IMG/VR virus record: IMGVR_UViG_2718218100_000003
Strand: one strand, 5' to 3'
Source: a virus
Lineage: Duplodnaviria > Heunggongvirae > Uroviricota > Caudoviricetes
Length of the DNA stretch: 64,000 nt
How positions within the stretch are numbered: position 1 is the stretch's first letter; each line of letters begins with the position of its first letter. This document shows positions 54,001 to 57,000 of the stretch, one piece after another. The position numbers are program-made.

Positions 54001-57000
54001 TTATTGCTCAGAAGATGGAGTTATCGATGCAGAAACTGGAAGAACTGCGGCAGCGATAGCGCAGGTCGATTGCAATGACGAGATTTATCAGCGCCAGCGT
54101 GGGATAAAAGAGAATCTGAGCAGTCTGGAGAATTTGAAATCGGTTAGGGATTTCATACTAGAATAATAGGATCCGCGGCACGTCGTATGCAAGAACGTGC
54201 CACGGCTGGCTGGCGAACTTTCGATAGTGCGAGTATTGAATGATTTCCAGCCGTTACCGATTTTACTATGTTTTCAGTAGAACGCTTAGACAAAACTGAG
54301 GCGCACAAAGCTTTGCACTGGATTGCAAGACTTTGTTCTATTCGATAGTTTAAGGTCGCTCACTCTACCTTTTCATCAAGCCAGTCCGCCCACCATTGCA
54401 TCATTTCTCTGCGCTTATCGTGGCAGACGCCTCACTATCACACTGTGATGGTTCATTACTGGTTTGCATAATGGATAGAGAACTGAGGATAAAAGATATC
54501 CCAAAACCCCAAAATCTCATCTTTAGGATTTGCAGAAAGGGAGGCGTAAACAAATACCCGCTCATGAAAACGGAACTAGTCCAGATGTGATGTTTGTGGT
54601 TATAACATACATCATCAACGATGCTCGTTATGGTGAGTTTGATGACTACCCACTGAAGTGAAAATTGTGTTGTGTACCAAATTGCGTACCAAACTAAAAT
54701 CACAAATTATGAAACCCTTGTTCATGGCGGCTCTCAGGGGTGTTGCGCGTAATCGTGAACAAAAAGGTAGATTGTTGCTTACCGTCATTCATCATTAGGT
54801 TAAATCCGTTGTTTCTGCTGTCTGCCAGAGTATCAAATATCACCGTGCTAATCAGCTTTAGCGCGACAATTTGACAGCGAGTGGCAACAGATCATGTCAG
54901 ATAAAAATGAGAGGGTAGTCACATTTTCTTGCACTTTATTCCAGCCAGTTCATAAGTATTTCCGTAAAAAGAACAGCTATTTGAAACTCCTGAGGGTTTG
55001 CTGTTGAAACGCCGTCTTATTATTGCTGCTTCTTTGTTCATTTTTAACTTATCGTCTGGTTTTGCGGCGGAAAACATTCCTTTTTCACCTCAGCCTCCAG
55101 AGATTCATGCCGGCTCCTGGGTATTGATGGATTACACCACCGGTCAGATCCTCACCGCGGGTAATGAGCATCAACAGCGCAATCCCGCCAGCCTGACAAA
55201 GCTGATGACGGGCTATGTCGTGGATCGCGCTATCGATAGTCATCGCATTACGCCAGACGATATTGTCACCGTGGGGCGCGATGCGTGGGCGAAAGATAAT
55301 CCAGTGTTTGTCGGTTCTTCACTGATGTTTTTGAAAGAGGGCGATCGCGTATCGGTACGTGATTTAAGCCGTGGTTTAATTGTGGATTCCGGAAATGACG
55401 CTTGTGTTGCACTGGCTGACTATATTGCCGGTGGGCAACGGCAGTTTGTTGAAATGATGAACAACTATGCCGAGAAGCTGCATCTCAAGGATACGCATTT
55501 TGAAACAGTGCATGGTCTGGATGCACCAGGTCAGCATAGCTCGGCTTATGATTTAGCTGTGCTTTCTCGCGCTATCATCCACGGCGAGCCCGAGTTTTAT
55601 CATATGTACAGTGAGAAAAGTCTCACCTGGAACGGTATCACCCAGCAAAACCGTAACGGGTTATTGTGGGATAAAACCATGAATGTTGACGGCCTGAAAA
55701 CGGGTCATACTTCTGGTGCCGGGTTTAATCTCATTGCTTCGGCTGTAGATGGGCAGCGTCGTCTCATTGCAGTGGTAATGGGGGCTGACAGTGCAAAAGG
55801 TCGTGAGGAAGAGGCAAGAAAATTACTGCGTTGGGGGCAACAAAACTTTACTACGGTGCAAATTTTGCACCGTGGGAAAAAGGTCGGTACGGAACGCATC
55901 TGGTATGGCGATAAAGAAAATATCGCCCTGGGAACGGAACAAGAGTTCTGGATGGTGCTACCGAAAGCCGAAATTCCACATATCAAAGCCAAATATACCC
56001 TTGATGGTAAAGAGCTCACCGCGCCAATTAGCGCCCATCAGCGGGTAGGGGAAATTGAACTTTACGACCGTGATAAACAGGTGGCGCACTGGCCGCTGGT
56101 TACCCTGGAATCTGTCGGGGAAGGCAGCATGTTTTCTCGCCTGAGTGATTATTTCCACCATAAGGCCTGACCTTTCTTTTGCAGCAGACTGGCAGGAGTG
56201 CGAGTCTGCTCGCATAATCAACACTCATTCCTTGTGGTTTTAATATTGCAACTATACTGTATATAAAAACAGTAATAATGGAGGCGTCATGAACTACGAG
56301 ATTAAGCAGGAAGATAAACGTACCGTTGCAGGTTTCCATCTCGTTGGCCCGTGGGAACAGACGGTAAAGAAAGGTTTTGAGCAGTTGATGATGTGGGTAG
56401 ATAGCAAAAATATTGTGCCGAAGGAGTGGGTTGCTGTCTATTACGACAATCCGGATGAAACACCCGCCGAAAAATTACGCTGCGACACCGTCGTGACGGT
56501 ACCGAATAACTTTACGCTCCCCGAAAACAGTGAGGGCGTCATTCTGACAGAAATTTCAGGTGGTCAATATGCGGTGGCGGTGGCTCGTGTAGTCGGTGAT
56601 GATTTTGCTAAACCCTGGTATCAGTTCTTTAATAGCCTCTTGCAGGACAGTGCTTATGAAATGTTACCAAAGCCCTGCTTCGAGGTTTACTTGAACAATG
56701 GCGCGGAAGATGGGTACTGGGATATCGAAATGTATGTTGCGGTGCAGCCAAAACATCACTAATTCATCTCAGGGCGGTGTGTTGACGCGAAGACCACTCT
56801 TTTTTTGAAAGCGAAAAGAGTAAGATGCGCCTTTCAATTTTTTCGCTCCTGCCGGGAAATTACACTGTTCCCGGTTTGTCCGTCGGATAATTCAGAGGCG
56901 CGCCTTCTGACCGACAGATGTGTTATGAGCGCTTTTAATCTTCATTAACGGAGTTTCTGCGTGCGTGCCAATAAGTCATTAAGCCCGTTTGAAATCCGGG

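Follow-up and report, generated by a model that had tools for sequence, protein, structure and literature searches.

The prophage and the adjoining host region

The window, i.e. the whole stretch of 64,000 nucleotides that was analysed, comprises a Stx2c-converting prophage and the host chromosome to its right (Table 1). Up to the junction it was collinear with phage 2851 and with the prophage carried by O157:H7 strain 4276 (97.5-99.9% identity to the latter, IS positions differing). Over the last 2.45 kb before the att core, its right arm matched the right end of phage 2851 at 99.8% identity. The stx2A gene and a stx2B gene of stx2c type are situated downstream of Q and of three tRNA genes, in the lambdoid late region. 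The insertion junction of the IS1203/IS629-type element, which contains an Rfam ALIL pseudoknot (16132-16248), was shared by just one of 5,426 complete E. coli genomes, that of strain AUSMDU00002545 (Australia). Further Rfam matches above the gathering score were found at 21581-21792, 13822-14007, 14952-15035 and 4933-4991; the families concerned were STnc100 sRNA (just downstream of stx2B), isrK and C4 antisense RNA (both near the antirepressor region), sRNA-Xcc1 and the lambda cIII thermoregulator. Close to the right end, the OspB-like ORF gave no match in Pfam or NCBIfam; it is probably a type III effector moron adjoining nleG7.

In RefSeq relatives, no gene is annotated in the approximately 1 kb between nleG7 and the att core (53700-54747). 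This segment contains an ORF of 100 aa on the minus strand (54401-54703), and phage Sf101 has a small hypothetical CDS annotated at the equivalent position beside attP. Two weak terminator-like hairpins were also observed on the minus strand (54574-54557 and 54318-54301), both of which would meet any transcription running from the orphaned sbcB promoter toward nleG7.

On the host side, the first gene is dacD, identified by the NCBIfam DacD equivalog (E 5.6e-256) and divergent to a remnant of sbcB. The intergenic region between them presumably still serves dacD, and any sbcB promoter within it would now face the prophage end. Beyond yeeA/tmaR, from about 58600 to 64000, lies a CP4-44-like island with yeeW, the cbtA/cbeA toxin-antitoxin genes, yeeS, yeeT, an antirestriction gene and a DUF932 gene; in strain 4276, cbtA is annotated as 'frameshifted'.

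Table 1. Features of the prophage, the junction and the adjacent host DNA (window coordinates)
Feature	Position	Strand	Remarks
Stx2c-converting lambdoid prophage, phage 2851/1717 type	1-54747	+	left 2.4 kb (int, xis, attL) lies outside the window
IS1203/IS629-type IS3 element	about 15272-16586		inside the phage antirepressor gene
stx2A	20266-21225	+	product same as Stx2 A annotated in strain 4276
stx2cB	21237-21506	+	product same as Stx2c B annotated in strain 4276
OspB-like ORF, 291 aa	51931-52806	+	'putative OspB-like protein' in the phage 2851 record, 'hypothetical' in RefSeq
nleG7	53031-53681	-	Pfam T3SS_NleG
Tandem repeat TG(T/C)GTACCAAA, two copies	54671-54695	+	phage arm, 53-77 bp from the core
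Junction ORF	54700-54795	-	13 native SbcB residues, then phage DNA: MMNDGKQQSTFLFTITRNTPESRHEQGFHNL*; stop 54700-54702
att core	54748-54759		common to attB, attP, attL and attR (alignment of window, K-12 and 4276)
Orphaned native sbcB 5' end	54748-54795	-	start codon 54793-54795, codons 1-13, then core
Native sbcB-dacD divergent intergenic region	54796-54997		collinear with K-12
dacD (penicillin-binding protein 6b)	54998-56170	+	first host gene right of the prophage; RefSeq start about 55004

The junction within sbcB

The first-pass annotation had recognised the N-terminus of SbcB on the minus strand, divergent from dacD, and this was borne out by alignment with K-12: positions 54795 to 54757 read ATGATGAATGACGGTAAGCAACAATCTACCTTTTTGTT, the translation of which (MMNDGKQQSTFLF) is the same as the N-terminus of K-12 SbcB. 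The plus strand of 54748-54799 is cgtaatcgtgaacaaaaaggtagattgttgcttaccgtcattcatcattagg, and the codons of the remnant on the minus strand are ATG ATG AAT GAC GGT AAG CAA CAA TCT ACC TTT TTG TT... The remnant measures 48 nt, as against 49 nt in K-12, and matches K-12 sbcB with 47/48-nt identity and one gap, which corresponds to one missing T (GTTC vs GTTTC). Past the remnant, the match with K-12 continues over 2.85 kb of dacD-sbmC-yeeA at 98.2% identity. A prophage-host junction in early sbcB had likewise been proposed correctly; it falls within the first 16-17 codons, with the Stx2c lambdoid prophage to its left. The accompanying statement that the reading frame diverges into a stop needs to be refined. 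The frame does break after FLF, because one T is absent from the window, but sequence identical to the host runs on through CACGATTACG as far as position 54748. No function is expected of the resulting junction ORF; in relatives whose T-run is normal, attR reads MMNDGKQQSTFLFHDYAQHP*.

The same breakpoint was obtained from a megablast search of 54300-55100 against the 5,426 complete E. coli genomes. Matches were found in 5,416 of them and extended across the full query in 495, while most began at query base 449, i.e. window position 54748, under the annotations 'dacD | sbcB'. In the prophage-free complete genomes (approximately 4,900), similarity to the window begins exactly at this position. 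None of the complete RefSeq genomes was 100% identical to the window over the 101-bp junction.

At the breakpoint, the plus strand of the window reads CGTAATCGTGAA, which represents 12 of the 13 bases of the canonical core CGTAATCGTGAAA, one A/T of the terminal run being absent; relatives carry all 13 bases. Given in sbcB sense, attB of K-12 is ...CTACCTTTTTG TTTCACGATTACG AAACCTTTGG..., attL of strain 4276 is ...CTACCTTCCTC TTTCACGATTACG AAACCTTTGG... and attR is ...CTACCTTTTTG TTTCACGATTACG CGCAACACCC..., so that in the four-way alignment (attR of the window, attB of K-12, attL and attR of 4276) a common core is accompanied by reciprocally exchanged flanks. The core codes for F13-H14-D15-Y16 and the first base of E17, that is, for the conserved HDYE catalytic motif of exonuclease I (ExoI).

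attP, arm repeats and the phage-borne sbcB start

We reconstructed attP by placing the core between the right arm of the window and the left arm taken from strain 4276. This sequence was contiguous in the free phages mEp234, E212, EC.P3 and Sf101 (100% query coverage, 94-97% identity), as well as in HK140 and HK544 over 77-78% of its length. GenBank records label the 13-bp core attP 'type 2851' (mEp234, HK544) or 'duplication due to insertion' (phage 1717), and it has been published for phages 2851 and Sf101 (PMC4159516).

It could be argued that the sbcB-like stretch reflects chance similarity, or that it stayed behind after some unrelated deletion or rearrangement, given that just 13 SbcB residues had been recognised initially and that unrelated sequence follows directly. 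This is extremely improbable. The near-perfect nucleotide match to K-12 runs into 2.85 kb of syntenic host DNA, the breakpoint is the published att core, relatives possess the reciprocal junction and free phages possess attP. Both possibilities are thus ruled out by the 54748 breakpoint, the att alignment and the contiguous attP.

The integrase gene adjoining attL, which in relatives lies in the part of the prophage outside the window, encodes Arm-DNA-bind_3 and Phage_integrase domains, the arm-binding and catalytic parts of a lambda-Int-type tyrosine recombinase. The two tandem TG(T/C)GTACCAAA repeats of the right arm are complemented by three further copies on the int-side arm, outside the window, and the same spacing of the repeats is kept in five free phages; elsewhere in the 64-kb window the 8-mer GTACCAAA is absent. 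Since the integrase contains an arm-DNA-binding domain and the spacing is conserved, the repeats are probably arm-type integrase-binding sites.

The phage arm beside the core reads ATG ACA GAC ACA GAT AAA CAA CCT ACC TTC CTC, in frame with the core. This ATG and 12 in-frame codons are kept by the P22-like phages Sf101 and E212, by siphoviruses of HK type and by Stx phages, the sole changes being D3G (Sf101) and AAA>AAG, which is synonymous (phage 2851). An exact-pattern scan for the phage-borne sbcB start among species-representative genomes detected it on one E. coli contig only, a result that says nothing about a wider range of hosts.

Probable rebuilding of sbcB at attL

From these data, we consider the right-hand junction to be attR of a phage-2851-type prophage whose own start rebuilds sbcB at attL, with a probability of roughly 0.9. 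Crossover within the 13-bp core TTTCACGATTACG (sbcB sense) would split sbcB, but attP brings in an ATG of its own plus 12 codons (MTDTDKQPTFLF) that are in frame with the core. The phage-borne start would be fused on integration to the body of sbcB at attL, giving a full-length SbcB of 474 aa. At attR, the displaced native start codon would be left, along with 13 codons and the upstream region of the native gene.

A search for attL inside the window gave no result, the window beginning about 2.4 kb within the prophage. In AUSMDU00002545, which is 100% identical to the window over its first 2,206 bases, the attL core and the sbcB start are situated 2,433 bp and 2,400 bp, respectively, leftward of the base that corresponds to position 1 of the window. 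We infer that the genome studied here has an equivalent attL and an intact sbcB about 2.4 kb left of the window. The other junction and its direct-repeat core, which had been suggested as targets for a search, were thus located in relatives (attL with the 13-bp core), the prophage's own attL being outside the window. Similarly, an intact sbcB elsewhere in the genome, foreseen earlier as evidence against inactivation, was seen directly in relatives and is expected in the genome from which the window derives.

In four of four related lysogens (4276, AUSMDU00002545, 2571 and 2010C-3142), attL carried an intact 474-aa sbcB (WP_000132546.1), the first 12 codons of which are derived from the phage. 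Its product reads MTDTDKQPTFLF|HDYETFGTHPALD..., with the phage start in frame with HDYETFG... The chimeric SbcB is identical to that of K-12 in 464 of 474 residues (98%), the first 8 residues differing from native ExoI, and its alignment with the solved ExoI structures 1FXX and 4JRP spans the full length, including the HDYETFG motif. Exactly this protein was present on at least 1,000 contigs. The attL junction was found in 581 and the attR junction in 561 of the 5,426 complete genomes, and in the genomes sampled attL is annotated as sbcB. The first-pass annotation had expected ExoI to be inactivated unless the other junction rebuilds the gene, and it is this proviso that applies in the relatives. 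At the sequence level, insertional inactivation of sbcB is not supported, and the proposed loss of ExoI is most likely wrong for the lysogen. The chimeric sbcB is presumably expressed and active.

T-run variation at attR and attL

The T missing from the window belongs to the run at the core edge (54757-54760), which is TT here. In complete genomes, most lysogens have TTT at this place of attR, 22 have TTTT and 4 have TT like the window; one of these is ATCC 43889, with 6 mismatches in 6 kb. AUSMDU00002545, despite its identity to the beginning of the window, has the normal TTT. Although the T absent from the window may reflect a sequencing error, the polymorphism itself is real, because TT recurs in four independent complete genomes and TTTT in 22. 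Insertions or deletions of one T in the adjacent 5-T run of attR occurred in no complete genome, and the T-run at attL varied by +1 or -1 in none of 581. Frame-breaking variants were therefore present in 26/561 attR and 0/581 attL junctions (Fisher p = 7e-9, for genomes that are non-independent, shared ancestry being uncorrected). Strains 2571 and 2010C-3142, with TTTT and TT at attR, respectively, have the intact chimeric sbcB at attL. This pattern fits selection that holds the chimeric gene in frame and an absence of selection at the orphan start, i.e. the native 5' end of sbcB, which seems free to decay. As the 3-T run at the core edge varies and the adjacent 5-T run is invariant, the integrase itself might provoke the T-run indels.

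These data also bear on whether the prophage could impair ExoI in another way, namely that the chimeric ORF is intact but, deprived of the native promoter and leader, poorly expressed, so that lysogens would be sbcB hypomorphs. The native upstream region has indeed been left at attR, cut off from the gene, and the 181 bp of phage-derived DNA between int and the chimeric start yielded no consensus promoter: a crude sigma-70 consensus scan of this segment found none, with 1.0 expected by chance. In the same crude scan, however, native sbcB likewise showed no strong consensus promoter, and when the phage-derived DNA upstream of sbcB and the attR region were scanned for promoter and terminator consensus sequences, the outcome was no better than with shuffled controls. 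Moreover, the same 474-aa protein is kept by lysogens sufficiently diverged for their attR sequences to differ, frame-breaking T-run variants occur at attR (26/561) but not at attL (0/581), and unrelated phage types all keep the ATG and 12 in-frame codons. We therefore regard reduced expression as unlikely and retain the rebuilding of a working sbcB as the preferred reading.

Prophage-free genomes with a frameshifted sbcB

Two O157 strains, 319 (UK) and CEC13004 (Japan), have no prophage at sbcB and carry TTTT within the gene. In both, sbcB is annotated as 'frameshifted' and reads MMNDGKQQSTFLFSRLRNLWH...*. Within the clade-8 subgroup SG8_31A, CEC13004 is the member with stx2a alone (PMC9997748). 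Other members of this subgroup (53_142304, 57_142493, 06-3462, 93_161312 and 08-3914) are stx2c-positive (PMC9997748), and all five are among our genomes with TTTT at attR. The TTTT runs of 319 and CEC13004 are probably excision scars, in which loss of the prophage joined a mutated orphan start to the gene, this being the simplest reading of prophage-free genomes with TTTT. The reverse order, in which TTTT arose in an unoccupied sbcB and lysogeny then rescued the gene, is less parsimonious, because an ancestral Stx2c phage, passed on vertically and later lost from some lineages, has been inferred for clade 8 (PMC9997748). Under the excision reading, precise excision of the prophage described here would leave a sbcB with a -1 frameshift (MMNDGKQQSTFLFTITKPLARTPR*).

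Taken further, the two observations can be combined into a model that we put forward tentatively, its odds being somewhat short of even. According to the model, the orphan start decays for want of selection; when the prophage is lost from a lysogen with a T-run variant, the altered remnant is rejoined to the gene, and the host therefore becomes an ExoI frameshift mutant. The process would operate as a one-way ratchet.

Comparison with known integration systems

The junction belongs to a known system, whose core, type of integrase and attP annotation can already be found in the literature and GenBank. The sbcB gene counts among the four canonical sites of Stx phages in O157:H7, and it is there that Stx2c phages usually reside (PMC8309913, PMC4645166, PMC5359411, PMC7175801, PMC9997748). 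The literature searched, which does not include the original description of phage 2851, speaks of 'disruption' or 'occupancy' of sbcB in lysogens and contains no mention of a rebuilt ORF or of frameshift scars. The prototype Stx2c-converting phages 2851 (FM180578) and 1717 integrate in sbcB in the same manner, and they share with the window the 13-bp core, the cargo (OspB-like ORF, NleG, stx2c), the integrase family and the host serotype. The differences are at strain level only, namely the missing base in the T/A run of the core and the IS1203/IS629 element in the antirepressor gene. The original description of phage 2851 is that of Strauch et al. (2008), as cited in PMC4159516.

The 13-bp core is also found in the serotype-converting phage Sf101 of Shigella flexneri and in the coliphages mEp234, HK544 and HK140 (attP 'type 2851'). 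Shared as well are the repeats of probable arm type, the start codons for sbcB that the phage carries and the integrase, at 99% identity. These phages have P22-like or HK97-like bodies without stx, and the integration module alone is held in common.

Two further systems invite comparison. In phage 21 and e14, which integrate in icd, and in many integrators of tRNA genes, attP contains a surrogate for the displaced part of the gene, and the ORF of the lysogen is intact. Whereas these elements swap the 3' end of the gene, the type described here swaps the 5' end together with the start codon and everything upstream of it, and so initiation of both transcription and translation of sbcB must come from phage DNA. 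In the 'active lysogeny' of phi10403S in comK of Listeria, the gene is broken in the lysogen and restored by excision. Both cases involve a prophage inside a DNA-metabolism or competence gene, the state of which is altered by excision. Unlike with phi10403S, the gene is intact in the sbcB lysogen, and excision would break it where the orphan 5' end has mutated.

Implications

The junction confirms the textbook integration site of Stx2c phages that is used in typing of O157:H7, and the new element, i.e. decay of the orphan start and its consequence at prophage loss, is a modest one. Where a paper or pipeline records the sbcB gene of an Stx2c lysogen as 'disrupted', an ExoI-null phenotype should not be taken for granted, since the ORF is rebuilt by the phage. 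Natural loss of a Stx2c prophage may, on the other hand, sometimes leave a frameshift in sbcB. As ExoI affects recombination, mismatch repair and frameshift mutagenesis, such a frameshift could be of consequence in comparisons between stx2c-positive strains and cured ones. If the ratchet model is true, the sole working sbcB start of the host becomes that of the phage, which may penalise curing, or else yield stx2c-negative derivatives that are sbcB-null and thereby altered in recombination.
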